64,000 bases of DNA. It comes from Candidatus Dormiibacterota bacterium (GTDB lineage Bacteria > Chloroflexota > Dormibacteria > Aeolococcales > Aeolococcaceae). The notes beneath the pieces are model-generated. The model was not told where the DNA came from, ran no database searches, and saw nothing but the letters and a program-made list of their open reading frames with translations. Each line of letters starts with the position of its first letter. The stretch's first letter is position 1. Location of the stretch: assembly GCA_003162415.1 (NCBI GenBank), contig PMOL01000017.1, positions 34,532 through 98,531 on the forward strand, given 5' to 3'. Of the stretch, positions 7,678-55,109 are shown one piece after another. The translations under genes were made by a program, and so were the position numbers.

Positions 7678-8927
7678 CAGCGGTCGAGCCGGAACGCCTC
7701 GCGGATCGCCAGTGTCGTCGCGGGGTCTCCCGCTTCACGAAGGCGGGTGACCGGTCCATGCAGGAGCTTCCGGACCATGCTCCTGGTCAGCATCTCGACG
7801 CGCTCGCGGGTTGCATCATCGATGGGCCGCCCGTTGCCGAAGGTTCGAGCCACCTCTTCGGCGCGCAGCCTCTCGGCCCACTCGACCAGCGCGGCGATGG
7901 TCGGGCCGGCGGTGTCGCGCTGACCGATCACGGTGACCGTCTTCTCGAGCTCGACGTCGATGATCGCCTCGGCTGCAGGTACGGTTTCCCGGCGCTGATC
8001 GAGCCGCTGTCCGACTCGCCGTCCGAGCTCATCGATGTCGATCAGGGTCACCCCCGGCACCTCGGCGGCCGCAGAGTCGATGTCGCGCGGCACGGCCATG
8101 TCGACGATGCACAGCGGCCGGAGCCCGCGCAGGCGCTGCAGCACCTCGACGGCGGCGGCATCGAGAACCGTCGTTGCGCTGTCGGTGGACGCGATGATCA
8201 CGTCAACCCCGTCAGCAACCTCCGCGAGCGCGCCGAGGGCGACTGGTTCCGCACCGACAGCCTTGGCCAGCCGGCGGCTCGACTCACCCCGCGAGGTGGT
8301 CATGATCCGCGCTCCCTGGTCGTGCAGGCGATTGGCGGCCAGGCGGCTCATCTTTCCCGCGCCGATCAGCAGGACACCCTTGCCTTCGAGGTCGCCGCAG
8401 GACGCGCGGGCGCACTCGACGGCAACCTCGCTGAGGCTCGCCGCACCCCGGCCGAGCAATGTCTCGGTACGGACGCGTTTGGCCGTCGATACGGCCCGGC
8501 GCATCACGTAGTCGAGGCGAGCATCCACCGTTCCCGCCTCGGTGGCGACCCGATGCGCGTCCTTGAACTGGCCAAGCACCTGCGCCTCGCCGATCACCAT
8601 GCTCTCGAGGCCGCTCGCCACCCGGAACATGTGCTCAGCGGCATCACGATCCTCGAGGGTGACCATATGGCGTTCGACCTCGCCCGAGCCACCTGGGTCG
8701 AGGTATCGAGCCAGTCGCGGGGCTACCTCGGCGCTGAGGTTGTCCGGGCAGACCACGTAGAAGTCGGTGCGATTGCAGGTGGAAAGCACTGCCGCGCCGT
8801 GCAGGCCCGCATGCCCCACGAGGTATCGCAGGGTCGTTGCAGCACGCGCCGCTGGGATGGCCGCAGCCTCCCGCACAGCCAGTGGAGCGGTGCGAAAGCT
8901 CAGCCCGGCGGCTACCAGTCGCATCAC
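7677..8927 (-). CDS. hemA: glutamyl-tRNA reductase
   Basis: VLSTCNRTDFY catalytic Cys motif, GEAQVLGQ, and NADPH-binding VLLIGAGKMS. Confidence 0.9.
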   Translation of the reverse strand: MMRLVAAGLSFRTAPLAVREAAAIPAARAATTLRYLVGHAGLHGAAVLSTCNRTDFYVVCPDNLSAEVAPRLARYLDPGGSGEVERHMVTLEDRDAAEHMFRVASGLESMVIGEAQVLGQFKDAHRVATEAGTVDARLDYVMRRAVSTAKRVRTETLLGRGAASLSEVAVECARASCGDLEGKGVLLIGAGKMSRLAANRLHDQGARIMTTSRGESSRRLAKAVGAEPVALGALAEVADGVDVIIASTDSATTVLDAAAVEVLQRLRGLRPLCIVDMAVPRDIDSAAAEVPGVTLIDIDELGRRVGQRLDQRRETVPAAEAIIDVELEKTVTVIGQRDTAGPTIAALVEWAERLRAEEVARTFGNGRPIDDATRERVEMLTRSMVRKLLHGPVTRLREAGDPATTLAIREAFRLDR

Positions 8928-9892: not shown

Positions 9893-10348
9893 TTGCCCAG
9901 CCACCTCAACAGGGCCGAGGCGATCGGTACCGCATCCGCTGCCGTCGGCGTCCTCGTGGCGTTCCTACCCTGGTACGCCTATGCCGCCGGCACTTCCCAC
10001 GTATCGGTCAACGCCTTTCGCGCCTCGGTGTTCGGCGATCTGTTCTTCGTCGCAATTGCCGCCGCGATCCTCCTCCTGCTGATCGGGCGCGGATTCGTTG
10101 ACGACGTGGTCACACCATATATTCCGGAGACCACAGCCCACGCCACCGCGGCCGCAGTGGCCATGGGCAGCGTGCTCATTCAACTGATCCTGACGCGAGC
10201 CACCGGACGTTCGCTCGGCATTGGAATCTTTCTGGCCCTGATTGCGGCGGCGGGTCTTTGTACCTCCGCGGTGCTACGCCGGCTTCATCCGGACCGTCGT
10301 CGAATTGGTCGTGAAGGCCTTTCCCACGAGGGTCTGCTTACCCCATAA
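9893..10348 (+). CDS. small polytopic membrane protein, paralogue of 11009..11542
   Basis: The TTG at 9893 lies 7 nt after GAGGA. The N-terminus aligns with the 11009 protein (AIGTASAAVGVLVAFLPWYAY versus IAVGAGLIVGLIALFLPWYGY). Four hydrophobic segments. The start is uncertain. Confidence 0.5.
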   Translation: MPSHLNRAEAIGTASAAVGVLVAFLPWYAYAAGTSHVSVNAFRASVFGDLFFVAIAAAILLLLIGRGFVDDVVTPYIPETTAHATAAAVAMGSVLIQLILTRATGRSLGIGIFLALIAAAGLCTSAVLRRLHPDRRRIGREGLSHEGLLTP

Positions 10349-10438
10349 TCCAGCGATCCGCGCTCGGGGGACGTGGCGCCCCCGGTTCAAGTCGATGCCA
10401 CATCTGCTCATTCACCCTGGGAGGAACCACCCGAAGCA

Positions 10439-10996
10439 ATGGCCAATATGCTGCTCGAACCGCCCTTCGCCGCGAACCCGCCGGTGAAGCTCAATGTCAA
10501 CGCGAAGATCCTGGGCTTAGTTATCGGCATCCTCGCTCTTATTGGAGCGGTATTTGGAGGCCTGGTCGGCGGCCTGTTCTCGCTGTTCAGTCTGGCTGCC
10601 GGCGGGTTTGGCGGCATCTGGCTAATCGGGATTCTGATCAGTCTCATCGCGGACGTGATCGGGGCAATCGGCGGTTTCCAGATGTACAGTGGGAACCGCG
10701 CAGGCAAGAACCTGGTGATCTACGCACTTGCCCTTGGCTTTCTCGGCAGCATCGTGGGCGCGATCGGAAACATCGTCGCGTACAGCGGGATCTACTCCTT
10801 GGGCGGGTATTCCGCGGGCGGCGCCATTGTGGGTCTCATTTTTGGCGTGATCGTCTATGGGATCATCTACTACATCGTCGTGATTAGTCGGTGGCCAGGT
10901 GACGTGCCGCTGGTGGCCGCAGGACCAACCGGCGGTTATGGCAATCCTCCCGGCGGCTACGGGAGTCCTCCTCCACCTCCCCCACCCAGCGCCTGA
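10439..10996 (+). CDS. small Gly-rich polytopic membrane protein with C-terminal polyproline tail
   Basis: Several G-rich TM segments and a tail GGYGNPPGGYGSPPPPPPPSA. The ORF is open from the GTG at 10373, and the ATG at 10439 follows GGGAGGA. Confidence 0.55.
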   Translation: MANMLLEPPFAANPPVKLNVNAKILGLVIGILALIGAVFGGLVGGLFSLFSLAAGGFGGIWLIGILISLIADVIGAIGGFQMYSGNRAGKNLVIYALALGFLGSIVGAIGNIVAYSGIYSLGGYSAGGAIVGLIFGVIVYGIIYYIVVISRWPGDVPLVAAGPTGGYGNPPGGYGSPPPPPPPSA

Positions 10997-11008
10997 GGAT
11001 CAGCAGAA

Positions 11009-11542
11009 ATGAACATTGCAGGCAAGAAACTGTCAAATGGCGACATCGCTGTCGGCGCCGGTCTGATCGTCGGCCTCATCGCGCTGTTCCTTCCCTGGTA
11101 CGGCTACACGTATTCGGGCGGCGGCATTTTGGGAATCTCCGGGAGCGGCTCGGTCGGTGGTCTCAACTACTGGACCGGCTGGTTCTTCTTCCTCGCAGTG
11201 CTGGTCGGTCTCGCACTGATCATCATGCGGACCTTCGCCCCAACGGTTGCCATCCCGGCATTGCCCCTCAATGACGCCGTGACCTACATGGTGGTCGGTG
11301 GCGTGATGGTTGTCATGGCGCTTCTCTGGCTGGTCCTCGGCGCCCCAGCCTCGTATTCCGAAGTTGGGTTTTCGGCCGGCGTGAGCTTCGGGCTCTTCGT
11401 CGGGTTGATCGCGGGGATCGCCGTCGTGGCTGGAGGATTCCTCAAGCGCGCGGATCCGCAACCCGCCACCAAGCCGTTCAGCGCCTATCAGTCTCAGTCG
11501 ACTCCTCCGCCCTCAGCTCCACCCCCGCCGCCACCTGCCTGA
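11009..11542 (+). CDS. small polytopic membrane protein with C-terminal polyproline tail
   Basis: LPWY-motif N-terminal TM segment, four hydrophobic segments, and a tail STPPPSAPPPPPPA. Starts 12 nt after the preceding stop. Confidence 0.6.
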   Translation: MNIAGKKLSNGDIAVGAGLIVGLIALFLPWYGYTYSGGGILGISGSGSVGGLNYWTGWFFFLAVLVGLALIIMRTFAPTVAIPALPLNDAVTYMVVGGVMVVMALLWLVLGAPASYSEVGFSAGVSFGLFVGLIAGIAVVAGGFLKRADPQPATKPFSAYQSQSTPPPSAPPPPPPA

Positions 11543-32904: not shown

Positions 32905-32989
32905 TACCGGGCCCGGGAATTGAACCCGGACGAGGGTTGCCCCCCAGCGGTTTTTAAGACCGCCGCGTCTTCCATTTCGCCAGCCCGGC
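32905..32989 (-). tRNA. tRNA-Leu (anticodon UAA), class II with long variable arm
   Basis: Hand-folded. Acceptor GCCGGGC/GCCCGGT (G1-U72), 3-bp D stem with GG loop, anticodon stem GCGGT/ACCGC with loop CTTAAAA, T arm CCGGG-TTCAATT-CCCGG. CCA is not encoded. Confidence 0.88.
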
Positions 32990-34161: not shown

Positions 34162-34235
34162 GGCGACGTAGCCAAGTGGTAAGGCACGGGTCTGCAAAAC
34201 CCTGACCGTGGGTTCGATTCCCACCGTCGCCTCCA
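34162..34235 (+). tRNA. tRNA-Cys (anticodon GCA), CCA encoded
   Basis: Acceptor GGCGACG/CGTCGCC, anticodon loop CTGCAAA, T arm GTGGG-TTCGATT-CCCAC, 3' TCCA. Confidence 0.92.
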
Positions 34236-36398: not shown

Positions 36399-37766
36399 TT
36401 AAGACCCGTCTCCTCGCCGCGCAATCGCTTCCCTATTGGATTCCAGCCGTTGGGCGACCTGTGCCTCGGCGCCGTGGGTCGAAGGGTCGTAGTACGTCTT
36501 CCCTGAGAGCGACTCGGGCAGGTGCTGCTGCTCCACCACTCCCCCTTCATGGTCATGGGCGTACCGGTAGCCGGTGCCGTAGCCCATGGCGCGGCCGAGA
36601 CCGGTCACGGCGTTGCGGAGGTGCAGCGGGACGGGCTGGTGAAGCGTCTGGGCGACGTCCGCCGATGCGGCGACGTAGGCGCGGAGCACGCTGTTGCTCT
36701 TTGGAGCCGCGGCCAGGTAGAGCGTTGCCTCGGTGAGCGGGAGGAAACCCTCGGGCATCCCGATGAAATGCGCTGCCTGCTGCGCCGCCACGGCAACGCT
36801 CAGCGCCTGCGGATCGGCGAGCCCGATGTCCTCGGCGGCAAGGATCACCAAGCGGCGCGCCACGAAGAGCGGATCCTCGCCGGCCTCGAGCATCCGGGCG
36901 AGCCAGTACACCGCGGCGTCCGGGTCGCTCCCGCGGACCGACTTGATGAAAGCGGAGATCAGCCAGTAGTGCTGATCGCCGGCGCGGTCGTACAGGAGCG
37001 CCGGGTTCTGCAGCGCGCCCTCGATGTCGGCGGCGGTCACTCGCACCACCCCCGATCCGTCCGCAACCGCTGCCTGCACCGCGAGCTCGAGCGAGTTGAG
37101 CGCGATGCGCGCGTCGCCGCCGCAGAGCGTCACGAGCCGGTCGATGGCGTCGGGATCGACAACCACCTGTTGGCCTCCCAGCCCGCGCTCGGCGTCCGTC
37201 AGCGCGCGGTTGATGAGGTTGCGCAGGTCCTCGGCTTCGAGCGCCTCGAGACGGATGACGCGGCTTCTCGAGAGCAGCGCGGCGTTGACCTCAAAGGACG
37301 GGTTCTCGGTGGTCGCGCCGAGGAGCGTCACCGTCGCGTTCTCCACATGCGGCAGCACTGCGTCCTGCTGGCCCTTGTTGAAGCGGTGGATCTCGTCGAT
37401 GAAGAGCACCGTGCGTCTCCCCGTTCGCAGACGCTCGCGCGCTCGCTCGACCACCTTGCGCAGGTCGGCGACGCCGGCGCTCGTCGCGCTCACCGCCTCG
37501 AAGGTTGCATTGCTCGTACCCGCGATGAGCGCTGCAAGGGTTGTCTTGCCGCTTCCGGGCGGTCCCCAGAGGATGAGCGACGGTACCTCCCCCGCGTCGA
37601 CGGCTCTGCGGAGTACGGTTCCAGCACCGATGGCGCGATGCTGGCCGACGAATTCATCGAAGGTCCGTGGCCGCATGCGTGTTGCCAGCGGCGCGTGAGG
37701 GTATGCACCGGACGCGTCCGCCGAGCTGACCGGGTCTGCACCGAAGAGCGAACTCTGCCCGGCCAA
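36399..37766 (-). CDS. rarA: replication-associated recombination protein A (AAA+ ATPase MgsA/RarA)
   Basis: Walker A GPPGSGKTT, Walker B LFIDEIHRFNK, and the C-terminal MgsA domain (YDRAGDQHYWLISAFIKSVRGSDPDAA). Confidence 0.9.
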   Translation of the reverse strand: MAGQSSLFGADPVSSADASGAYPHAPLATRMRPRTFDEFVGQHRAIGAGTVLRRAVDAGEVPSLILWGPPGSGKTTLAALIAGTSNATFEAVSATSAGVADLRKVVERARERLRTGRRTVLFIDEIHRFNKGQQDAVLPHVENATVTLLGATTENPSFEVNAALLSRSRVIRLEALEAEDLRNLINRALTDAERGLGGQQVVVDPDAIDRLVTLCGGDARIALNSLELAVQAAVADGSGVVRVTAADIEGALQNPALLYDRAGDQHYWLISAFIKSVRGSDPDAAVYWLARMLEAGEDPLFVARRLVILAAEDIGLADPQALSVAVAAQQAAHFIGMPEGFLPLTEATLYLAAAPKSNSVLRAYVAASADVAQTLHQPVPLHLRNAVTGLGRAMGYGTGYRYAHDHEGGVVEQQHLPESLSGKTYYDPSTHGAEAQVAQRLESNREAIARRGDGS

Positions 37767-37780
37767 CGCTGAGGGTCCGC

Positions 37781-38746
37781 TCAGCTGCTGGACGGGGGAA
37801 CAGTGACGACCGTCGGCGGCTCGAGCCCCGGCGCATCACCAAGGACGCTGCGCAGCACCTGTGCCGCACCGAGCAGCCCGGCAGTCTCCGCGGGTACGAC
37901 CAGCTTGGCGTTGGGGCTCTCGGCGAACTTCGTCAGCGTGTCCAGCTGGAGAATCGCTACCAGTGTGGGATCCGGCGCGGCAGCCTTGATGGATCCGTAC
38001 ACGGTGGAGATTGCCTGGGCGCGACCTTCCGCCTCGAGGATGGCAGCCTGCCGATTGCCTTCTGCGCGAAGGATCGCCGCCTGCCGCTCGCCCTCTGCCT
38101 GCTTGATCGCAGCCTGCCGGTTACCGTCGGCGATGTTGACAGCGGATTGCTGCTGACCTTCCGATTGGAGGATTCGCGCGCGCTTCTCCTGGTCGGCCTG
38201 CTTCTGCAGGGCCATCGCCTGGAGGATCTGCACCGGCGGCGAGATGTCAACGATCTCGATGCGGTTGATGCGGATACCCCATTTATCGGTGACCTGCTCC
38301 ATCTGCTGCTGCATCGCGGCATTGATCTGCTCGCGCGACGAGAGGGCCTCGTCGAGGCTGACGTTGCCGAAGGCGTTACGAAGCGTGGTTCGGGCCTGCT
38401 GATCGATGGCGACGAGGTAGTCAGACACGTTGAACAGTGCGGCCCTCGGCTCGATCACCTGGCTGAAGATGGTTGCGTTGACTGCGACCGCGACGTTGTC
38501 GCGCGTGATCACGTCCTGACGGTCACCGGTTCGCGGTGTCTCTCGCATGTCGACCCGCAGCAGCTTGTCGATGAACGGCGTGATGATGGTCAGACCGGCC
38601 TGGGATTCCCGCCGAAACCGTCCAAAACGTGTGACCACCCCGGCGAATCCCTGGGGTACGACACGGACCGCGCCGCCGATGAGGATCGCCACGACGATGA
38701 GCAGGACGACGACGATGATCGCCGTGACCAGACCGGTGTTATCCAC
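37781..38746 (-). CDS. SPFH/band-7 (stomatin/prohibitin-like) membrane protein
   Basis: The GTG at 38746 follows AAGGGAGG. N-terminal TM segment, then VRVVPQGFAGVVTRFGRF and an Ala/Gln/Glu-rich coiled-coil tail. Confidence 0.85.
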   Translation of the reverse strand: MDNTGLVTAIIVVVLLIVVAILIGGAVRVVPQGFAGVVTRFGRFRRESQAGLTIITPFIDKLLRVDMRETPRTGDRQDVITRDNVAVAVNATIFSQVIEPRAALFNVSDYLVAIDQQARTTLRNAFGNVSLDEALSSREQINAAMQQQMEQVTDKWGIRINRIEIVDISPPVQILQAMALQKQADQEKRARILQSEGQQQSAVNIADGNRQAAIKQAEGERQAAILRAEGNRQAAILEAEGRAQAISTVYGSIKAAAPDPTLVAILQLDTLTKFAESPNAKLVVPAETAGLLGAAQVLRSVLGDAPGLEPPTVVTVPPSSS

Positions 38747-38750
38747 TGAG

Positions 38751-39209
38751 TCAGCCTCCCTTGGGCGGCGCGACCACGAGCGTGGTGCCGCGCACTTCGA
38801 CGACGGTGACCTGCTGATGCGCAGGGACGCCGCCGGGATTGGTCGTGACCGCCAGCCACTTCTCGTTGAAGAGGCGGGCATGGCCGGGGTGGTTCTCGTC
38901 CCCCACGGGCTCGAGCGTCAGTGCTGCCTGACCGACCAGGTTGTCGGACGCACCGGGCATGGTCAGCTTGGGCCCGAGATGACGCGCCGAGAGACGCGCC
39001 AGAGTCGGTCGCACCGCCAGGGTGCCGACCATCGCCACCGCGGCAGCGACGACTGCCTGCAGCCACACTTCAGTGGGGAACAGCGCAACCACGGTCGCGG
39101 CGAACGCACCCAGCGCAAGGAATAGGGCATAGAACGCCTGAGTGTGGACTTCCATGCCCACGAGGACCAGGCCGGCAAGCAACCAGACCACCCACATCCA
39201 GGAGACCAT
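38751..39209 (-). CDS. NfeD-family membrane protein
   Basis: Three N-terminal TM segments plus a C-terminal OB-like block (GQAALTLEPVG..ARLFNEKWLAVT..VTVVEVRGTTLVV). Classical NfeD-SPFH pairing. Confidence 0.75.
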   Translation of the reverse strand: MVSWMWVVWLLAGLVLVGMEVHTQAFYALFLALGAFAATVVALFPTEVWLQAVVAAAVAMVGTLAVRPTLARLSARHLGPKLTMPGASDNLVGQAALTLEPVGDENHPGHARLFNEKWLAVTTNPGGVPAHQQVTVVEVRGTTLVVAPPKGG

Positions 39210-39238: not shown

Positions 39239-39796
39239 CTACACAGGCGGTTCGGTGGACATCCTTCCGCCCGCCGCTCGGAGCAGCGCCAGAGCGACCA
39301 GGCCACCAAGTGTCGCCCAGGCGGTCAGGCTGATGGCCGCCTGGCTGAAATCGGTTCCGGCCAGCTGTGCGTGGATCAGGAAGATCCCGAACATCGGATA
39401 GGTGAGTCGATGGATCCAGCGCCAGAGGAACGGTCGCATGAGCCGCCGCAGCGCCGACGTCGCCGCGATCAAAACCAGCAGGAGCAGGCTGACCGTTCCG
39501 AGTCCGATGGCGAGTTGCGACCCCGCACCTTCGTTCACGCGAAATGGGATCAGCAGATCGAGCGGGGTGATGCGCGACGTGACGTCGAGGACGAGCGTGC
39601 TCACGTGCACGCCCACGAGTGGCAGCCAGAACCATGTGAGGAACCCGTGCACCGCCACCACCGTGCGGTTGCGCGCCACGGGCGCCAGGTACGCGGTTCT
39701 GATCGCCATGCCGGTGAGCAGCGATGCCGCGAGGACGAAGAACGCCGCCAGCGCGGCGGCACGAGCCGCATACCAGAGGATCAGGTCCGTGCTCAC
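39239..39796 (-). CDS. ferric-reductase-like (FRD/MsrQ-like) transmembrane protein with four conserved-pattern histidines
   Basis: Six hydrophobic segments. In VHGFLTWFWLPLVGVH the two His have 13 residues between them, and in IHRLTYPMFGIFLIH they have 12. The GTG at 39796 lies 1 nt after the ApbE stop. Confidence 0.65.
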   Translation of the reverse strand: MSTDLILWYAARAAALAAFFVLAASLLTGMAIRTAYLAPVARNRTVVAVHGFLTWFWLPLVGVHVSTLVLDVTSRITPLDLLIPFRVNEGAGSQLAIGLGTVSLLLLVLIAATSALRRLMRPFLWRWIHRLTYPMFGIFLIHAQLAGTDFSQAAISLTAWATLGGLVALALLRAAGGRMSTEPPV

Positions 39797-39797
39797 A

Positions 39798-40661
39798 TCA
39801 GGCGGCGCGATCAGTGGCTGGCGACACCACCGCGTGGCATGCGGCACCTCGTTGCTCGAGCCATGAGCGCGCCATGCCTTCGCCGATCAGGCACGCACCC
39901 TTGGCGAGAATCTCGGCATGCAGCGCGGTCTGCGCGACGACGGAGATGGCGGTGATGTCCGTACGCGCCGGCGCCGCCGTGCGCGGGTCGATGAGGTGGT
40001 GCCCGCCGGGCCAGAGCCGCCCCGACGTGCCAGAGGTGGCGACGCCGGCATCGCCAACTGTCACAAAGCGGCCATCACAGAGCGCGACTGCCCAGCCGGA
40101 CCTTCGTGGGCCGGGCCCTCGGGTGCGCACATCGCCACCTAGGTTGATCGCCGCGTTGTCGAAGCGTTCGCACAGGCAGTCTGCAAGCCATCCCTTGCCG
40201 ACACCCCCGAGGTCGATCGCGCAGCCGGGCGCGACCCGTGCCCATCCCTCTCCAACCTCGAGCACAAGCGGCAGAGCAGGGACGTCCTTGCGCGGTCGCC
40301 ACTGGACGCGGGTGGAGGGACCGCGCCGGAGTTCGGTGATCGACCGGTCGTATCCCGCATCGACGAGTGCCGGCAGGCATGCGGCGTTCACCAGGCCGTC
40401 GCTGAACGCATATGCGTCGAGGCAGACGCAGAGCAACTCGGCAAGCAGCGGCGACACCGAGACGCGGGCGCCGGCCGCCGCGTTGAAACGCGAAAGCTCA
40501 CTCCCCGCGTCGAATCTCGTGAGTTGTCGCTCGAACGCATAGGCGTCTGCCACCACAGCGGAGACGTCGCCTTCGGTCGCGTCGCACGCGATGATCTCGC
40601 AGCGGGCGCCGCCGAACGCGGTGAAGACGTGATGGATGTCGGTTCCCGTGCTGCCGCTCAT
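39798..40661 (-). CDS. apbE: FAD:protein FMN transferase (ApbE family)
   Basis: FDAGSELSRFN, AIDLGGVGKGWLAD, INLGGD and GVATSGTSGR..HHLIDPRT motifs. ATGA overlap with the upstream gene. No signal peptide with this start. Confidence 0.8.
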   Translation of the reverse strand: MSGSTGTDIHHVFTAFGGARCEIIACDATEGDVSAVVADAYAFERQLTRFDAGSELSRFNAAAGARVSVSPLLAELLCVCLDAYAFSDGLVNAACLPALVDAGYDRSITELRRGPSTRVQWRPRKDVPALPLVLEVGEGWARVAPGCAIDLGGVGKGWLADCLCERFDNAAINLGGDVRTRGPGPRRSGWAVALCDGRFVTVGDAGVATSGTSGRLWPGGHHLIDPRTAAPARTDITAISVVAQTALHAEILAKGACLIGEGMARSWLEQRGAACHAVVSPATDRAA

Positions 40662-41119
40662 GAGACGTACGTGTTGATGAGTGGCTGTGTCGACGCAGGT
40701 GCCGCGACGACTGACGGAGCGATGGACTGACCGGTGGCGACGCCGCTTCCGGCGCTGTCGCAGGGCGCATAGGTGCCGCTGGCAGACCGGCGCGACGAGC
40801 GCAAGTAGGCTTCGACCTCGAGCCTCTGCGTCGCGCTCAGCGACGCGAGAATGTTTCTGCGCGTGGATGCGGTGGTCGCCTGTTGGAGTTGCCGCGCCAC
40901 CGGTAGCAACGACGGGTCGAGCGCCCCGGCGGTGCCGCCGCACGACGGTGGGATGGTCAGGGCCGCCGAGGCCGATGATGCGCCGTTCACCGGTGGCCGA
41001 AGCGGTGCCGCGACGGGCTGCGGGTCGGTGGCGACCAGAAGACCGCTGACGCCGCAGACCACGACGGCGCCCACGCCGCTGAGCGCCTTCAGCACCCGAG
41101 TGCCGACGACCACTGTCAC
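40658..41119 (-). CDS. 153-aa N-terminally anchored or secreted hypothetical protein
   Basis: The GTG start overlaps the DUF1501 stop (GTGA), and the stop overlaps the ApbE start. Hydrophobic VLKALSGVGAVVVCGVSGLLVA head, with two Cys in the mature part. Confidence 0.55.
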   Translation of the reverse strand: MTVVVGTRVLKALSGVGAVVVCGVSGLLVATDPQPVAAPLRPPVNGASSASAALTIPPSCGGTAGALDPSLLPVARQLQQATTASTRRNILASLSATQRLEVEAYLRSSRRSASGTYAPCDSAGSGVATGQSIAPSVVAAPASTQPLINTYVS

Positions 41120-42351
41120 GCCGTCCGGATGATGGGAAGCTCGGGGAACGATGCGCCGAGCACGGATGTCGGGTCCGCCTGCAGCCAGTCGCGGATGAGG
41201 GTCTGGTAGACGCTGCGAAAGTCGACGTTGTACTGCAGATTGCCGGAGTCGACGGTGCTGGTGAGCGAGGGCTGCTCGCCGAAGACGCCGCCCTTGACCG
41301 GCTTTCCCACAACGAATATCGGCGCGGCGGCTCCGTGGTCGGTGCCTTTGCCGCCGTTCTCGGCCACGCGCCGTCCGAACTCCGACCAGGTCATCAGCAC
41401 GACTCTGTCCGCCATCCCGTGGTTGGCGATGTCCTGCATGAATGCGCTGACAGCACTGTCGACGTAGGCGAGCAGCGCGTTCTGGCGCGTGTCCTCGTCC
41501 TGGTGGGTGTCGAACCCGCCGAGAACGACGTGACAGATCTTCACGCTCGGCTGGGTCACGATCATCTCCGCGGTCAGCTGCAGCGATGTGGCGAGGCTGT
41601 TCTTGCTGCCGTAGACGGTGCTCTGCGGCGTGTAGGTCACCGACGGTGTGTAGCGGCTCTGCGAGTCCGCGAGTGCGGCAATCCCATACTCAGCGGTGGT
41701 CAGCGCCTGGTCGTACAGCGCGCCGTAGATACCTGGCGTCCGCTTGTACAGAGCCGGCGCCCCTACCCGCCGGCCTGCGCCGCCCTGCACCTGGTAGGTG
41801 GGGATCGAATCGATGACGCTCACCGTCGCGTTCTGGGCGAGCAGCTCGGCCGGCGTGCTCGCCTGCCCCAGGGCACATCCGGTGAGCGCGTGTCCCTGAG
41901 CGTTGAGCTGGCCGGCGAGCAGCTTCCCGAGCCATCCCTCGTTCTGTTGCATCGTCGGGTCGGCGTGCTCCCAGATGTAGAGACCCTCGAAGTGGGAGTA
42001 GACGGGATTGGGATAGCCGACGCCCTGCACCAGCGCCACCTCGCCCGCATCGAAGAGCTTCTTCATGCCCGGCATCACCGGGTTGAGGCCGATCTGCGCA
42101 TTCAGAGGCAGGATCTTGGCGGCGGGGATGCCGATCGTTGGTCGCGCCTGAAGATAGGCCGGATCCGCATAGGGAATGACGGTGTTGAGCCCATCGTTGC
42201 CACCCCCGAGCTGAAGGATCACCAGCACGCGGTCGTTGTGAACGTCCTCCATGGTGGCGGCAAATACGGACTTGGCGAAGACCGGTGGCACAGTGATGCC
42301 CACGCCGGTTGCGGTGATGCCGCTCACCATGAAGTCGCGCCGGCTGATCAT
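41116..42351 (-). CDS. DUF1501 domain protein (sulfatase/phosphatase-like fold) with Tat-type leader
   Basis: MISRRDFMVSGITATGVGITVPPVFA leader. LGGFDTHQ and GKGTDHG motifs typical of DUF1501. Confidence 0.85.
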   Translation of the reverse strand: MISRRDFMVSGITATGVGITVPPVFAKSVFAATMEDVHNDRVLVILQLGGGNDGLNTVIPYADPAYLQARPTIGIPAAKILPLNAQIGLNPVMPGMKKLFDAGEVALVQGVGYPNPVYSHFEGLYIWEHADPTMQQNEGWLGKLLAGQLNAQGHALTGCALGQASTPAELLAQNATVSVIDSIPTYQVQGGAGRRVGAPALYKRTPGIYGALYDQALTTAEYGIAALADSQSRYTPSVTYTPQSTVYGSKNSLATSLQLTAEMIVTQPSVKICHVVLGGFDTHQDEDTRQNALLAYVDSAVSAFMQDIANHGMADRVVLMTWSEFGRRVAENGGKGTDHGAAAPIFVVGKPVKGGVFGEQPSLTSTVDSGNLQYNVDFRSVYQTLIRDWLQADPTSVLGASFPELPIIRTA

Positions 42352-42362
42352 GTTTGTCTGCC

Positions 42363-43820
42363 TCACTTGAGCTGAAATTCGGGGCTGGCGAGCAGCGCAT
42401 ACCACCGATCGCCGTCGCTCTGGCTCGCGTTGAAGACGGCCGCGGTGTCCGGTCCCACGACGCCGTCGACTTGCACATGGATCGCATCCACCGGGTCGGG
42501 AAAACTTCCCTGAGTGGCGACGACCCGGTTCGCGAAGTTGAGACGCGCCAGCCACGCTCCCGAGGAGACCCATCCCTGGTTGGACGGCCAGCCGGCCACG
42601 GTCGGCATGTCGTACAGGATCTGATCCATGCCCGCCCCCGACTGCACGCACGTGGCCGCAAGATCCGGCCTGCTGAGCGCACGCATGGTCGCGACCATGT
42701 AGTCGGCAGGGCCGCGCACCAGCGATCGATACGCGTCCGGAGACGTGAACGCCTCACTGGTGAAGATCGAGCGCATCAAGGTCTTGATGTCGAAGTTGCT
42801 GGTGCGGAACGCAGTCGCCACGGTGTTGATGAGTGATGTCGACGGATTCGGGGTGCAGAACTGCACCAGTGCGCTGCGCGCGATGTGGGGCGCGAACGAC
42901 GGCTGCGACAGGATGATGTCGAACGCCTGAGCGGGATCGAGGTTCCCGGTGTGTCCGAGAAATGTCTTGCTCCCGTTGTCGTGCTGGGTCCTCGCGAGCA
43001 CCCCTTTGAAGGTCGCACCCTGGGCGAGGAGTTGCTCCACGGTCTGGGCGTACGCCGCCGGCGTCGAGCCTTTGAGCTTTGGTGGCTGCATGCGCCGGCC
43101 GGACGCGTCGACCAGGATGGTGCGTATCCCGGAGAAGGCCCGAGCCCCCTCGCGCACATCGGTCTCGGTGTAGTTGCCCACCCCGAGCGTGAACAGCTCC
43201 ATCAACTCACGGCTGTAGTTCTCGTTGGGAGAGGCTGCGGTGCTCTCCTCGAGGTCGAGGTAGCGGATCATCAGCGGGTCGTAGGTGACCGCGTTGATCA
43301 GCGTGCGCAAATCACTCCGTCCGGTGGACCGGTACAGCTCGTTCTGCTGAAGCACAAAGGGCAGGCGCGCGGCCTTCCGGTAGTCGCTGGTGAGCAGACC
43401 GTGCCAGAACAGCGTCATCCGCTCCGGGAATTGCGCCGGCGTCGTCGCCATGTGCGCGTACCAGGCGCTGACGACCGCCTGGTGATTGGTCGGATTCGTC
43501 ACCGATGGCAACGGCTGTGCAGCCTGGTTGACGACCATCTCGACCAGATCCGGGTAGGACATCGCCGCCGCCGCGTCAAGCTCTGCCGGCGTGTAGCCGA
43601 AGGTGGCCCTGCGCAGAAGGTGGGCGGCAAGGCCGCGGGCGCTCGAAAGCGGACTCGCCCACGCGCCGGCAGGCCCCGCTGCCGATGCGACCGGCTGCGA
43701 CCCGCCGGGGAGTTTCAGCGTCAGGTACCGGAAGCCAGCGGCACCGACGACACCCCCGGCCGCGATGCCGAGCACCTGCCGGCGGCTGAGCTTGACATTC
43801 GCGCTGCCCATGGGCGCCAA
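42363..43820 (-). CDS. DUF1800 domain protein with Tat-like leader
   Basis: LSRRQVLGIAAGGVVGAAG leader. FWHGLLTS and NENYSRELMELFTLGVGNYTETDVREGARAFSG blocks typical of DUF1800. Confidence 0.85.
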   Translation of the reverse strand: MAPMGSANVKLSRRQVLGIAAGGVVGAAGFRYLTLKLPGGSQPVASAAGPAGAWASPLSSARGLAAHLLRRATFGYTPAELDAAAAMSYPDLVEMVVNQAAQPLPSVTNPTNHQAVVSAWYAHMATTPAQFPERMTLFWHGLLTSDYRKAARLPFVLQQNELYRSTGRSDLRTLINAVTYDPLMIRYLDLEESTAASPNENYSRELMELFTLGVGNYTETDVREGARAFSGIRTILVDASGRRMQPPKLKGSTPAAYAQTVEQLLAQGATFKGVLARTQHDNGSKTFLGHTGNLDPAQAFDIILSQPSFAPHIARSALVQFCTPNPSTSLINTVATAFRTSNFDIKTLMRSIFTSEAFTSPDAYRSLVRGPADYMVATMRALSRPDLAATCVQSGAGMDQILYDMPTVAGWPSNQGWVSSGAWLARLNFANRVVATQGSFPDPVDAIHVQVDGVVGPDTAAVFNASQSDGDRWYALLASPEFQLK

Positions 43821-44001
43821 GTCTCGGGAGCCGACCTGAGAATTCGCGTGGGTACAGTCTCCTTACGGGTGTGTCTCAGACAACTCTCAGTGTCCGAGCC
43901 CCGATTCGACCGCCGCCTCCACCCATTCCCCAGTCGGTACACTGAGATCGAGCCCGCCCCGTCGCGGGCTGCGCACTGATCCATTGCAAGGAGTACCAAC
44001 G

Positions 44002-44328
44002 ATGCCGTCCACTCCGGCCGAAATCTTCAGCGAGATCAATTCCCGCATTTCCGCAGATCCCGCCAAGACGGCAGGGATGAATGCCATCTATGCCTTCGAC
44101 CTCGGCGGCGAAGCGCCTGGCCAGTACCACATCTCGCTCAAGGACGGCAGCGCTGACGTCGGCGAAGGTGCTCCCGAGAACCCCAACATCACCATCACCA
44201 TGAAGTCGGAGGACTTCGTCGACCTGGCCACCGGCAAGCTCGACGGGACCATGGCGTTCATGAGCGGCAAGATCAAGATCAAGGGCGACATGGGGCTGGC
44301 GATGAAGCTTCAGTCGGTGCTCCGCTAA
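44002..44328 (+). CDS. SCP2 sterol-carrier-like domain protein
   Basis: The ATG follows AAGGAG. C-terminal FMSGKIKIKGDMGLAMKL motif of SCP2. Confidence 0.8.
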   Translation: MPSTPAEIFSEINSRISADPAKTAGMNAIYAFDLGGEAPGQYHISLKDGSADVGEGAPENPNITITMKSEDFVDLATGKLDGTMAFMSGKIKIKGDMGLAMKLQSVLR

Positions 44329-44348
44329 GCGCCATCGGTCCGCGCACG

Positions 44349-44666
44349 GTGGCCGTGGATGTCCGACCGGTGCGCTTCGATTACGACGAGCCGCATCGCT
44401 CGCTGCTGATCGAGTGGTCTGACGGTGCTGCGCATCACATTCCGTTCGCGGTGCTCCGCCGTGCCTGCCCATGCGCTGCGTGCAAGGGCGAACCCGGGTA
44501 TCGCGGCCGGTTCAACTCCGACCCGGAACTCCATCCCGGCGAAGACGAGCTCGCCGACATCTCGCTGGTCGGAGCCTATGGCCTCAACACCGTGTGGGCC
44601 GACGGGCACAACACCGGGATCTACACGTACCAGCGGCTCCGCGAACTCGGCGATGCGTCGGCGTAG
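44349..44666 (+). CDS. DUF971 domain protein
   Basis: LLIEWSDGAAHHIPFAVLRRACPCAAC pattern (the N-domain of gamma-butyrobetaine-hydroxylase-like proteins). Confidence 0.75.
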   Translation: MAVDVRPVRFDYDEPHRSLLIEWSDGAAHHIPFAVLRRACPCAACKGEPGYRGRFNSDPELHPGEDELADISLVGAYGLNTVWADGHNTGIYTYQRLRELGDASA

Positions 44667-53760: not shown

Positions 53761-55109
53761 CGCTCCGGCTGGTGAACCCGGCCACGGGGCAGCCCCTGGC
53801 AGAGCTCGAACAGGCTGGGGTGGCCGAGACTGACGGTGCCGTCGCCGCTGCAAAGGCGGCGTTCCCCGCCTGGCGGGCGGTCGCACCCTCCGACCGAGCA
53901 CGGCTGCTTCGCCGGCTCGCACGACTCGTCGAGGACCATCGCGAGGAACTCGCCCTGCTGGAAACCAGGAACGTGGGCAAGCCGATTGCGGACTCGCGCG
54001 GCGAGATCGGCATGGTTGCCGAGGTGTTCCACTACTACGCGGGCGCCGTCGACAAGCATTTCGGTCAGACCATCCCGGTCGCGGGCGGTGTCGACATGAC
54101 CTTCCGCGAGCCACTCGGTGTGGTTGGGTTGATCGTGCCCTGGAACTTCCCGCTGAACATTGCAAGCTGGAAGGTCGGGCCTGCGCTCGCGAGTGGGAAC
54201 ACCGTGGTGCTGAAGCCGGCTGAGTTGACCCCGATGACCGCGATCCGGCTTGCGGAGCTCGCCCTCGAGGCGGGCATTCCGGCGGGTGTGCTCAACGTCG
54301 TGGTGGGACCGGGTCGGGTTGTCGGTGAGCGCCTCATCCACCACCCCGACGTTGCCAAGATCGGCTTCACCGGTTCCACAGAGGTCGGGATCGAGGTCAT
54401 GCGCGCGGCCGCCGAGAGCATCAAGCGCGTCACCCTCGAGCTGGGTGGCAAGTCGGCCAATATCGTGTTCGGCGACGCCGACCTGGAGCGCGCGGCTGCG
54501 GCCGCCCCGTACGCGGTCTTCGGCAACGCCGGCCAGGACTGTTGCGCGCGTTCACGTGTGCTCGTCCAGCGAGATGTCTACGACCGCTTTGTCTCGTTGC
54601 TGATCACTGCGACGGACGCGCTTCGCGTCGGTGACCCCGAGGATGATGCGACCGAGATGGGACCGCTCGTGTCGGCGAACCATCGCAGCACCGTCGCGTC
54701 GTTCGTCGAATCCCAGCCGCTCTTTACCGGATCGATCCCCGATGGCCCGGGTTTCTGGTATCCGTGCACGCTCGTCGAGGCAACCAATGAGGACCGCATC
54801 GCCCGAGAGGAGGTCTTCGGGCCGGTCGCCGCGATCATCCCGTTCACGGACGAGGCAGACGCGGTGCGGATCGCCAACGACACGCCATACGGCCTGTCCG
54901 GATCGATCTGGACGACCAACGGCGCCCGTGCGCTGCGTGTCGCGCGCGCCCTGGACATCGGGGTGCTGTCGATCAACAGCAATTCCTCGGTGCGGGTTTC
55001 GACACCGTTCGGAGGTTTCAAGCAGTCGGGGTTCGGTCGCGAGCTCGGGATGAACGGTCTCGACGGCTACTCCGAGGTCAAGAACGTCTTCATATCCACG
55101 GAGGGCTGA
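53757..55109 (+). CDS. NAD(P)-dependent aldehyde dehydrogenase
   Basis: IVPWNFP, ELGGKSA and the catalytic Cys in NAGQDCCA. ATGA overlap with the ligase gene. Confidence 0.9.
   Translation: MTLRLVNPATGQPLAELEQAGVAETDGAVAAAKAAFPAWRAVAPSDRARLLRRLARLVEDHREELALLETRNVGKPIADSRGEIGMVAEVFHYYAGAVDKHFGQTIPVAGGVDMTFREPLGVVGLIVPWNFPLNIASWKVGPALASGNTVVLKPAELTPMTAIRLAELALEAGIPAGVLNVVVGPGRVVGERLIHHPDVAKIGFTGSTEVGIEVMRAAAESIKRVTLELGGKSANIVFGDADLERAAAAAPYAVFGNAGQDCCARSRVLVQRDVYDRFVSLLITATDALRVGDPEDDATEMGPLVSANHRSTVASFVESQPLFTGSIPDGPGFWYPCTLVEATNEDRIAREEVFGPVAAIIPFTDEADAVRIANDTPYGLSGSIWTTNGARALRVARALDIGVLSINSNSSVRVSTPFGGFKQSGFGRELGMNGLDGYSEVKNVFISTEG

Follow-up and report, generated by a model that had tools for sequence, protein, structure and literature searches.

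The DUF1800 and DUF1501 proteins occur in many phyla, DUF1501 with a very large expansion in Planctomycetes and Verrucomicrobia, and to our knowledge no function has been assigned to either. We analysed a 64,000-nucleotide stretch of DNA from a Candidatus Dormiibacterota genome (contig PMOL01000017.1, positions 34,532 to 98,531; hereafter the window), in which a DUF1800/DUF1501 gene pair is followed by genes for a small membrane protein, an ApbE-family flavin transferase and an MsrQ-like cytochrome b. The last three genes are referred to as the cassette. We put at roughly 55% the probability that the five genes are a conserved operon of two modules, in which the flavin/haem cassette feeds the exported DUF1800/DUF1501 pair through a dedicated loop of DUF1501.

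The closest described systems are the MsrQ-like gene clusters of Meheust et al. (2021, eLife, PMC8238504), which are common in Actinobacteria and for which electron transfer to extracytosolic acceptors has been proposed. In these clusters an ApbE gene likewise stands beside a gene for an MsrQ-like membrane protein (PF01794), there of a six-helix, two-haem type, and their operational definition, a PF01794 gene in an apbE cluster, describes the window as well, where the ApbE and MsrQ-like genes are adjacent with a gap of 1 nucleotide. They typically also encode a protein with a flavin mononucleotide (FMN)-binding domain (PF04205), and often an NAD-binding domain, whereas Pfam searches revealed neither in the five window proteins or their immediate neighbours. 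The window ApbE further differs in lacking a signal peptide, the membrane protein in having five helices, and the candidate FMN carriers in being a small protein without a family and a loop of DUF1501. DUF1800 and DUF1501 go unmentioned in the text of that study and in the supplements searched.

In Escherichia coli MsrPQ (YedYZ), an MsrQ-family membrane protein similarly passes electrons to an adjacently encoded enzyme exported by twin-arginine translocation (Tat). That system has no ApbE and no small protein, its partner is a molybdoenzyme rather than DUF1800/DUF1501, and E. coli MsrQ holds one haem and a non-covalent cytosolic FMN on R77/R78, where the window protein has a His at the R77 position. 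The DUF1501-PSCyt1/PSCyt2/PSD1 system of the Planctomycetes-Verrucomicrobia-Chlamydiae (PVC) bacteria (PMC3542564) has in common with the window a Tat-type DUF1501, a large partner and a haem component; there a c-type haem domain is fused to the partner, whereas the window encodes a separate predicted b-type membrane cytochrome and a flavin transferase. DUF1501 associates most strongly with cytochrome-c PSCyt/PSD1 proteins in PVC bacteria, and a role in electron transport has been proposed (Kamneva et al., 2012, PMC3542564). Given these cytochrome-c partners and the cytochrome b found here, DUF1501 is seen with a haem partner in two forms that are unrelated to each other. A cytoplasmic ApbE is known from Klebsiella pneumoniae, where it serves a soluble fumarate reductase (PMC12052999); it shares the absence of a signal peptide, but its substrate is a cytoplasmic FMN_bind enzyme with the canonical motif, and the window candidates are non-canonical and end outside the cytoplasm. 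In the C-terminal extensions of FMN_red proteins (Huang et al., 2024, PMC11334425) the flavinylation site also lies on a flexible C-terminus; those are soluble Firmicutes flavoproteins with canonical-like motifs, unlike the membrane protein of 57–187 residues considered here, in which the candidate is the very last Ser.

The window system thus fits a concept already described, that of flavinylation-associated MsrQ-like electron transfer (PMC8238504), and its novelty lies in the client enzyme, the candidate FMN carriers, the predicted cytoplasmic ApbE and the five-helix cytochrome. An earlier note on this DNA, made from its sequence, knew of no description of the linkage; the literature searched likewise held none tying ApbE or MsrQ to DUF1800/DUF1501, and no description of the small-protein family. 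The features on which the analysis turns are as follows (FAD, flavin adenine dinucleotide).

42363..43820, minus strand: DUF1800 gene, TTG start, 485 residues, PF08811 match
43770..43787, minus strand: twin-arginine-type leader SRRQVL of DUF1800, translation checked
41116..42351, minus strand: DUF1501 gene, ATG start, 411 residues, PF07394 match
42328..42345, minus strand: twin-arginine-type leader SRRDFM of DUF1501, translation checked
41602..41616, minus strand: DUF1501 loop V246-Y247-G248-S249-K250 (VYGSK), co-varying with the cassette
40658..41119, minus strand: gene for the small single-pass membrane protein, GTG start, 153 residues
40661..40672, minus strand: small-protein C-terminus T-Y-V-S-COOH with candidate FMN site Ser153, proposed from conservation of the terminal Ser
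39798..40661, minus strand: gene for the ApbE-family FAD:protein FMN transferase, ATG start, 287 residues, PF02424 match
39239..39796, minus strand: gene for the MsrQ/ferric-reductase-domain-like cytochrome b, GTG start, 185 residues
39605..39649, minus strand: codons His50 to His64, first predicted haem-ligand pair, 13 residues between, invariant, codons checked
39371..39412, minus strand: codons His129 to His142, second predicted haem-ligand pair, 12 residues between, invariant, codons checked

The earlier note had placed five consecutive minus-strand open reading frames here with coupled junctions, and a check of frames and junctions gave the same picture. DUF1800 and DUF1501 are separated by 11 nucleotides, DUF1501 and the small gene share GTGA at 41116–41119, the small gene and ApbE share ATGA at 40658–40661, and the TGA of ApbE is followed after 1 nucleotide by the cytochrome GTG at 39796. 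Some 30 other species have equally tight junctions, which argues against a chance layout of the five genes. Translation of DUF1800 probably begins at the ATG at 43811 (482 residues) rather than at the TTG at 43820, since the orthologues have 482 residues.

Conservation was assessed by a scan with an alignment of the cytochrome, taking one genome per species. Thirty loci were recovered, essentially all from metagenome-assembled genomes of Dormibacterota, and the order DUF1800-DUF1501-small-ApbE-cytochrome was found in 30/30, with typical junctions of 10; 2 or -4; -4; and 1 or -4 nucleotides. The surroundings were less constant. Downstream, the NfeD-Band7-MgsA genes were absent in L005/L027, L010 and L015, while in L006, L029, L032, L035 and L036 inserted genes lay between them and the block; upstream, SCP2 was present at some loci and LamB/YcsF at others. 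As the flanks vary while the order does not, the block is kept as a unit.

The same components were then followed beyond this family. Relatives of the ApbE outside it were sought among 1.8 billion representative proteins; the nearest were 42–48% identical, and most of those examined had no signal peptide. A metagenome scan seeded with these relatives yielded 80 loci, in 57 of which the cytochrome gene immediately follows ApbE. The arrangements were sorted into groups A–E:

Group A (window, L001–L036): the five-gene block of Dormibacterota
Group B (L044, L052, L056, L073 and others): DUF1800-DUF1501-small (72–76 residues)-ApbE-cytochrome, with overlapping junctions and unrelated flanks
Group C (L079, L081, L084): small-ApbE-cytochrome preceded directly by an MsrP-like gene (Oxidored_molyb + Mo-co_dimer), without DUF1800/DUF1501
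Group D (L063): DUF1800-DUF1501, two inserted genes, then ApbE, no cytochrome
Group D (L069, L071): ApbE alone, no cytochrome or small gene detected
Group E (about 35 loci): small-ApbE-cytochrome only

Group B is a sister lineage whose proteins show 40–50% identity to those of the window. Group E includes near-identical matches to Nitrolancea hollandica and to a Dehalococcoidia metagenome-assembled genome, and some of its cassettes are followed by response regulator and histidine kinase genes. The linkage proposed by the earlier note therefore holds in 30/30 loci and in the sister lineage, but not generally, eight Dormibacterota loci and three in other phyla lacking the cassette; the five genes behave as a conserved unit, as claimed, while association with the cassette is no general property of DUF1800/DUF1501. 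In a neighbour-joining tree of concatenated DUF1800 and DUF1501, groups A and B were each monophyletic with bootstrap 100, and the cassette was carried by all basal lineages of A and by all of B. The cassette-less clades were nested within A (bootstrap 71), their monophyly with each other being unclear (22). This nesting, together with the cassette-less locus P0255 described below, indicates that the five-gene state is ancestral and that there have been at least two to three losses of the cassette.

These losses allowed the pair to be compared with and without its cassette. Columns invariant in 35 cassette-bearing sequences were examined in the cassette-less orthologues, which retained 128/151 of them in DUF1501 and 80/97 in DUF1800, so that selection continues to act on the pair where the cassette is missing. 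In DUF1501, residues 246–250 form one contiguous segment that was replaced in every cassette-less sequence compared, the replacements including TPAA, APAA, TVAGT, ADTAA and APAGSA. The motif V-[YHF]-[GSA]-[ST]-[KR] was present at 53/53 cassette-bearing loci, including group B and L063, and in 0/8 cassette-less orthologues. It is also absent from DUF1501 of other phyla, in which the segment is shorter and different. Among the best 120 DUF1501 clusters, 65 carried the Y form and three the H variant, while 44 lacked the motif. One motif-less case, P0255, was forecast blind to be cassette-less, and on its 6.8-kb contig NfeD comes directly after DUF1501; its DUF1501 is 84% identical to the window protein, so that it marks a further, recent loss. 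In DUF1800, K149 and D189 are near-invariant with the cassette and are mostly Asn or Ser without it (K149 in 6/7, D189 in 5/7).

This co-variation is the strongest evidence, drawn from comparison of sequences, for a direct functional partnership between the cassette and DUF1501. Ser249 of the loop is a candidate site of FMN attachment; alternatively, the loop may be a docking site for a flavin. Two further patterns were considered and set aside: the choice of Y or H in the small-protein tail did not consistently match that in the DUF1501 loop, and an S/T-G-A-T-V-S string near DUF1501 residue 174, taken as a flavinylation motif, occurred in two orthologues only, its Thr being N, Q, E or R elsewhere.

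Assignment of the ApbE protein to its family is clear (PF02424, E 7.8e-38, 130.9 bits against a cut-off of 25.6), and 13 PDB chains of ApbE match it (best E 1e-10). The window protein contains the FAD-binding and catalytic motifs DLGGVGKGW, ATSGTSG and HHLIDPRT, the last of which includes the general-base His, and none of them varies among 27 orthologues. All orthologues begin about 10 residues ahead of the first strand of the domain, leaving no signal peptide or lipobox in any of them, and the enzyme is therefore predicted to be cytoplasmic. Database entries of two relatives (P0562 and P0420) seemingly fuse ApbE to the cytochrome, which if real would bear on topology; they are single cluster members or out-of-frame-looking sequence and were treated as frameshift or gene-calling artefacts of the 4-nucleotide overlap. 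At L063, L069 and L071 the signal-less ApbE gene lies between rpoB and rplJ/rplL; the extra genes of L063 encode an ABC ATPase and an APH-type kinase.

The 153-residue protein, which the earlier note described as anchored and gave no role, is likewise predicted here to be a single-pass membrane protein, and emerges as a conserved member of the cassette and a likely ApbE client. It has no Pfam or NCBIfam family, Pfam returning nothing even at E <= 10. The protein has a helix at its N-terminus, an APLRPP motif, a middle that varies and, at the C-terminus, a tail that is conserved, and is predicted by the positive-inside rule to lie N-in, C-out. Homologues of 57–187 residues stand directly upstream of ApbE in all lineages examined, apart from L063/L069/L071, where none was detected; small proteins of every group carry a [HS]-x-K-P or APL-x-P motif and a low-complexity tail. 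In L001 the protein has 70 residues and the middle is deleted. A degenerate FMN-binding domain was considered and rejected, there being no Pfam match and the entire middle being absent from L001.

The terminal Ser is invariant in groups A–C (13/13 and 11/11 distinct genuine tails), the tails reading T/S-Y-V-S or S-A-V-S in group A and T-Y-A-S, T-H-V-S, S-Y-V-S or S-H-V-S in groups B and C. In group E it ends 17/22 distinct tails, such as R-T-G-G-S, R-S-G-G-S, T-S-G-S, T-R-G-S and T-N-A-S. By comparison, 9.8% of genes in the background end in Ser. The codon is TCA, TCG, TCC, TCT or AGC, followed by TGA, TAG or TAA; with five Ser codons and all three stops in use, the constraint must act on the protein. 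The [ST]-G-G-S tail is one substitution away from the [ST]-G-A-[ST] of the canonical substrate motif. From this pattern the small protein is likely to be a client of ApbE, with the C-terminal Ser153 as candidate FMN site. A short cytoplasmic loop of the cytochrome, T28-G-x-A-x-R-T34, was also weighed as a target of ApbE; groups A–C conserve it, distant relatives only loosely, and it is a minor possibility. Apart from the tail, the dispensable middle of the small protein (residues about 75–105) contains a helical segment with L-[ST]-x-x-Q-R that resembles the LTXXQ (CpxP/Spy-type) periplasmic proteins, and also holds two Cys. A further Cys, C22 in the membrane helix, is invariant in five aligned group A orthologues and is Ile in L028 in a larger alignment.

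The cytochrome has 205 detectable homologue clusters, many of which, at 54–89% identity, carry a precomputed PF01794 match and are named YedZ/MsrQ at source; the names of homologues also place the window in Candidatus Dormibacterota. Its proposed ferric-reductase-like identity is supported by homologues with 85–89% identity that carry PF01794 and by the His pattern, though the window protein itself has no Pfam match. The His spacings of 13 and 12 residues were read correctly (H50/H64 and H129/H142), and all four residues are invariant in a 14-sequence alignment and across all groups. The six membrane helices of the earlier note were not recovered: hydropathy gives five hydrophobic segments, which correspond to the cofactor-binding core h2–h5 and to h6, h1 being missing. 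Within the MsrQ/ferric-reductase-domain family h1 and h6 are variable (PMC12525009). From its charge distribution we read the protein as N-out, C-in. The single N-in helix of the small protein might fill the h1 position, an idea rather than a result. By His spacing, H50 occupies the position of R77 in E. coli MsrQ; that Arg holds the non-covalent FMN, and NOX/DUOX have a haem-ligand His there (PMC12525009). The window cytochrome is therefore predicted to be of the di-haem (NOX) type.

The proteins of the pair were matched to PF08811 (DUF1800, E 2e-89) and PF07394 (DUF1501, E 5e-27), and adjacent genes of these two families on one strand are what defines a DUF1800/DUF1501 pair. The twin-arginine-like leaders noticed earlier stood up well: the RR is invariant in 46 DUF1800 orthologues (R13, R14) and in 52 of DUF1501, in which R4, R5, D6 and F7 show no variation. 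Both proteins are thus predicted to be exported by Tat. Searches of the PDB by sequence and by profile with either protein gave no matches. An AlphaFold2 model of DUF1800 (pLDDT, the predicted local-distance difference test score, 84; pTM, the predicted template-modelling score, 0.83) was all-alpha, and a fold search with it gave no PDB match at E <= 0.001; 28 of the 46 orthologues gave sub-threshold Pfam matches to PSD1 and PSD2 (best E for PSD1 1.5e-4). The AlphaFold2 model of DUF1501 was poor (pLDDT 63). With that model all of the top 50 Foldseek matches in the PDB belonged to the alkaline-phosphatase superfamily, among them LtaS, sulfatases, YejM and ENPP, the matches being weak (E 2e-3 to 3e-2). 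Residues of DUF1501 invariant across phyla fall in GGNDG, SHF, GGFDTH, SEFGR and GTDHG, and the conserved D, S-H, D-T-H and D-H fit the metal-ligand pattern of alkaline phosphatases and sulfatases. DUF1501 is tentatively predicted to have the fold of an alkaline-phosphatase-superfamily metalloenzyme.

In the reading that we favour, the five genes would be an ancient, translationally coupled operon. Module 1 would consist of the exported DUF1501, with its predicted alkaline-phosphatase-superfamily fold, and its all-helical partner DUF1800. Module 2 would be a portable cassette made up of the small Ser-ending membrane protein, the signal-less ApbE and the five-helix, four-His MsrQ-like cytochrome b. 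ApbE would use cytoplasmic FAD to attach FMN to Ser153 of the small protein and/or Ser249 of DUF1501, the latter being modified ahead of Tat export. The cytochrome b would move electrons across the membrane, and the covalent flavin would relay them to DUF1800/DUF1501 for a redox-dependent step at or near the metal site. Gene order, families, deep conservation, modular make-up and the co-variation of loop and cassette are direct observations, whereas the FMN sites, haem binding, the direction of electron flow and its acceptor are inferred. A cassette serving exported enzymes is supported by group C, which puts an MsrP-like protein where DUF1800/DUF1501 stand in groups A and B; MsrP is the periplasmic acceptor of MsrQ (PMC12525009). 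The cytochrome-c partners of DUF1501 in PVC bacteria (PMC3542564), with the weak PSD1 and PSD2 matches of DUF1800, give an independent hint towards the favoured reading. A wider proposal can be put forward tentatively, as possible rather than probable: the cassette may be a portable device of Dormibacterota and Chloroflexota type, in which a cytoplasmic ApbE, a leash with FMN on its last Ser and a di-haem cytochrome power various exported enzymes, including DUF1800/DUF1501 by way of VYGSK.

Several observations weigh against the two-module reading. The superfamily in which DUF1501 is placed consists of hydrolases and transferases, and we know of no redox members. Eight Dormibacterota loci, sampled from the DUF1501 side, lack the small, ApbE and cytochrome genes in unchanged surroundings (GBBH-like and SCP2 upstream, NfeD-Band7-MgsA downstream), and their retained invariant columns indicate that the pair works without the cassette. 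The pair is likewise without a cassette at three loci in other phyla, on plasmids of Miltoncostaea, Thermus and Paraburkholderia, and proteobacterial DUF1800/DUF1501 pairs accompany chitin-synthase genes (PMC5122149). The DUF1501 loop could serve for docking, with no electrons passing through it. The window cytochrome had no PF01794 match even at E <= 10. In the ApbE, alignment to the E. coli enzyme shows that the Mg-site A-D-x-x-x-T reads A-E-I-L-A-K, with Asp changed to Glu and Thr to Lys; this Lys is invariant among the orthologues, and the variant is common in signal-less relatives. The canonical substrate motif D-x-x-[ST]-G-A-[ST], which a transferase of this family would lead one to expect, is absent from the five proteins, their orthologues and the real open reading frames of the window, its sole match in the window being an antisense frame that was discarded. 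On the supporting side, mutagenesis of the motif has shown that G-to-A and A-to-V changes retain about 50% flavinylation and that D-to-A has a minor effect; flavin tags are most effective at termini, and cytoplasmic ApbEs exist (PMC12052999). Finally, ApbE is signal-less while the tail of the small protein is predicted to lie outside the membrane, and the two predictions conflict unless modification precedes translocation.

This conflict bears directly on which protein receives the flavin. Were the small protein the sole substrate, with FMN tethered on its C-terminal Ser and the DUF1501 loop acting as a docking pocket, one would understand why its gene stays with ApbE in all lineages, even without DUF1501, why the distant [ST]-G-G-S tails come nearest to the canonical motif, and why the site is terminal, where flavin tags are most effective and where FMN_red proteins are flavinylated on their C-terminal extensions; the aromatic and basic residues of the loop could plausibly cradle the isoalloxazine ring and phosphate. 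We nevertheless find this doubtful, as attachment of FMN would need to precede translocation of the tail, L063 retains both loop and ApbE although no small gene was detected beside the latter, and the tails of groups A–C, [ST]-[YH]-[VA]-S, place Tyr or His at the canonical Gly position. The converse, in which Ser249 of DUF1501 is the only FMN site, exported folded by Tat, and the small protein is a cytochrome subunit that possibly replaces h1, is unlikely. A cytoplasmic ApbE acting on a Tat substrate would remove the topology conflict, the loop Ser/Thr is invariant solely where ApbE is present, L063 included, and the cytochrome is short of an h1 for which the small protein supplies one N-in helix. 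However, the cassette is conserved at loci without DUF1501, and ApbE must therefore have another client there; V-Y-G-S-K is distant from D-x-x-[ST]-G-A-[ST]; and the conserved terminal Ser of the small protein would be left unexplained.

Other readings dispense with flavin transfer to the pair altogether. The cassette and the pair might be neighbours by descent that work separately and are co-transcribed in some lineages, the cassette reducing, for example, iron or another extracytoplasmic acceptor. The cassette does occur without DUF1800/DUF1501 in at least 40 of the 80 metagenome loci, at some of them followed by a two-component system, the pair does occur without the cassette at the eight Dormibacterota and three other-phyla loci, and the flanking NfeD-Band7-MgsA genes are likewise largely syntenic. 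Separate working is quite unlikely, however, in the face of a loop that has disappeared from each cassette-less lineage (two to three independent losses or more) and is retained with the cassette across a divergence to 50% identity. The DUF1501 stop and small-gene start lie 2 nucleotides apart or overlap by 4 in most species, the arrangement recurs amid different flanks, and L063 keeps ApbE, DUF1800/DUF1501 and the loop though it has no cytochrome. We judge it very improbable that the ApbE-like protein is no transferase, binding FAD or delivering FMN on the cytoplasmic face of the cytochrome in the manner of Fre or a NOX dehydrogenase domain. Its FAD-binding and catalytic motifs (GKGW, ATSG and HH-IDPR with the general-base His) are intact, the His in place of Arg77 makes the cytochrome a di-haem type without the FMN pocket of MsrQ, and neither the terminal Ser nor the DUF1501 loop would be accounted for. 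In its favour are the replacement of A-D-x-x-x-T by A-E-x-x-A-K in the window and in a wide signal-less clade, the missing canonical substrate motif, and the use by E. coli MsrQ of FMN on the cytosolic side with a cytosolic NADH oxidoreductase (PMC12525009).

The link between loop and cassette provides the first concrete, residue-level functional lead for the orphan pair. If the wider proposal of a portable device is true, the pair, with its predicted alkaline-phosphatase fold, is a redox-dependent enzyme, and motif-based surveys overlook ApbE sites of non-canonical form, namely [ST]-[YH]-x-S and, at the C-terminus, [ST]-G-G-S. The results suggest that the range of ApbE substrates is broader than the canonical motif; it may take in a small membrane protein flavinylated at its terminal residue, and perhaps a Tat substrate before export, which would account for some of the 'orphan' ApbE genomes of Meheust et al. 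(PMC8238504). A physiological trait would also be added for Dormibacterota, an abundant and understudied soil phylum.

Downstream of the block on the same strand, an NfeD gene (ATG at 39209) begins 29 nucleotides past the cytochrome stop and is followed by an SPFH/Band7 gene (probable GTG at 38746), the two spanning 37781–39209 of the window; they may be co-transcribed with the five genes. NfeD-Band7 and the adjoining MgsA gene (36399–37766) are syntenic in most, not all, relatives, and remain where the cassette has been lost. Divergent from the operon, SCP2 sterol-carrier-like and GBBH-like_N genes at 43984–44666 on the plus strand are syntenic in many relatives, and a second, weak GBBH-like match lies at about 54887–55030. 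A scan with Rfam revealed no riboswitch or other RNA upstream of the operon; its sole matches across the 64-kb window were transfer RNA genes at 32905–32989 (minus) and 34162–34232 (plus). Promoter (sigma-70) and terminator scans of the window were uninformative, the genome having 67% GC.

Further observations concern the relatives. In the group C molybdoenzyme (region about 3350–6700 of L079, L081 and L084) some 200 residues are added at the N-terminus, and upstream of its gene lies a conserved protein of 473–524 residues without a Pfam family; the 473-residue form was considered as a DUF1800 relative and showed no similarity. At L091, L104 and L109 the cassette adjoins genes for an OmpR-type response regulator and a histidine kinase, and such two-component neighbours suggest that expression of the cassette is regulated. 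In one cassette-less clade (L040–L042 and L125; about 8280–8710 and 10290–11360) a 4HBT thioesterase gene stands in place of the cassette, and a gene for an FMN-dependent dehydrogenase (IMPDH/FMN_dh) follows Band7.

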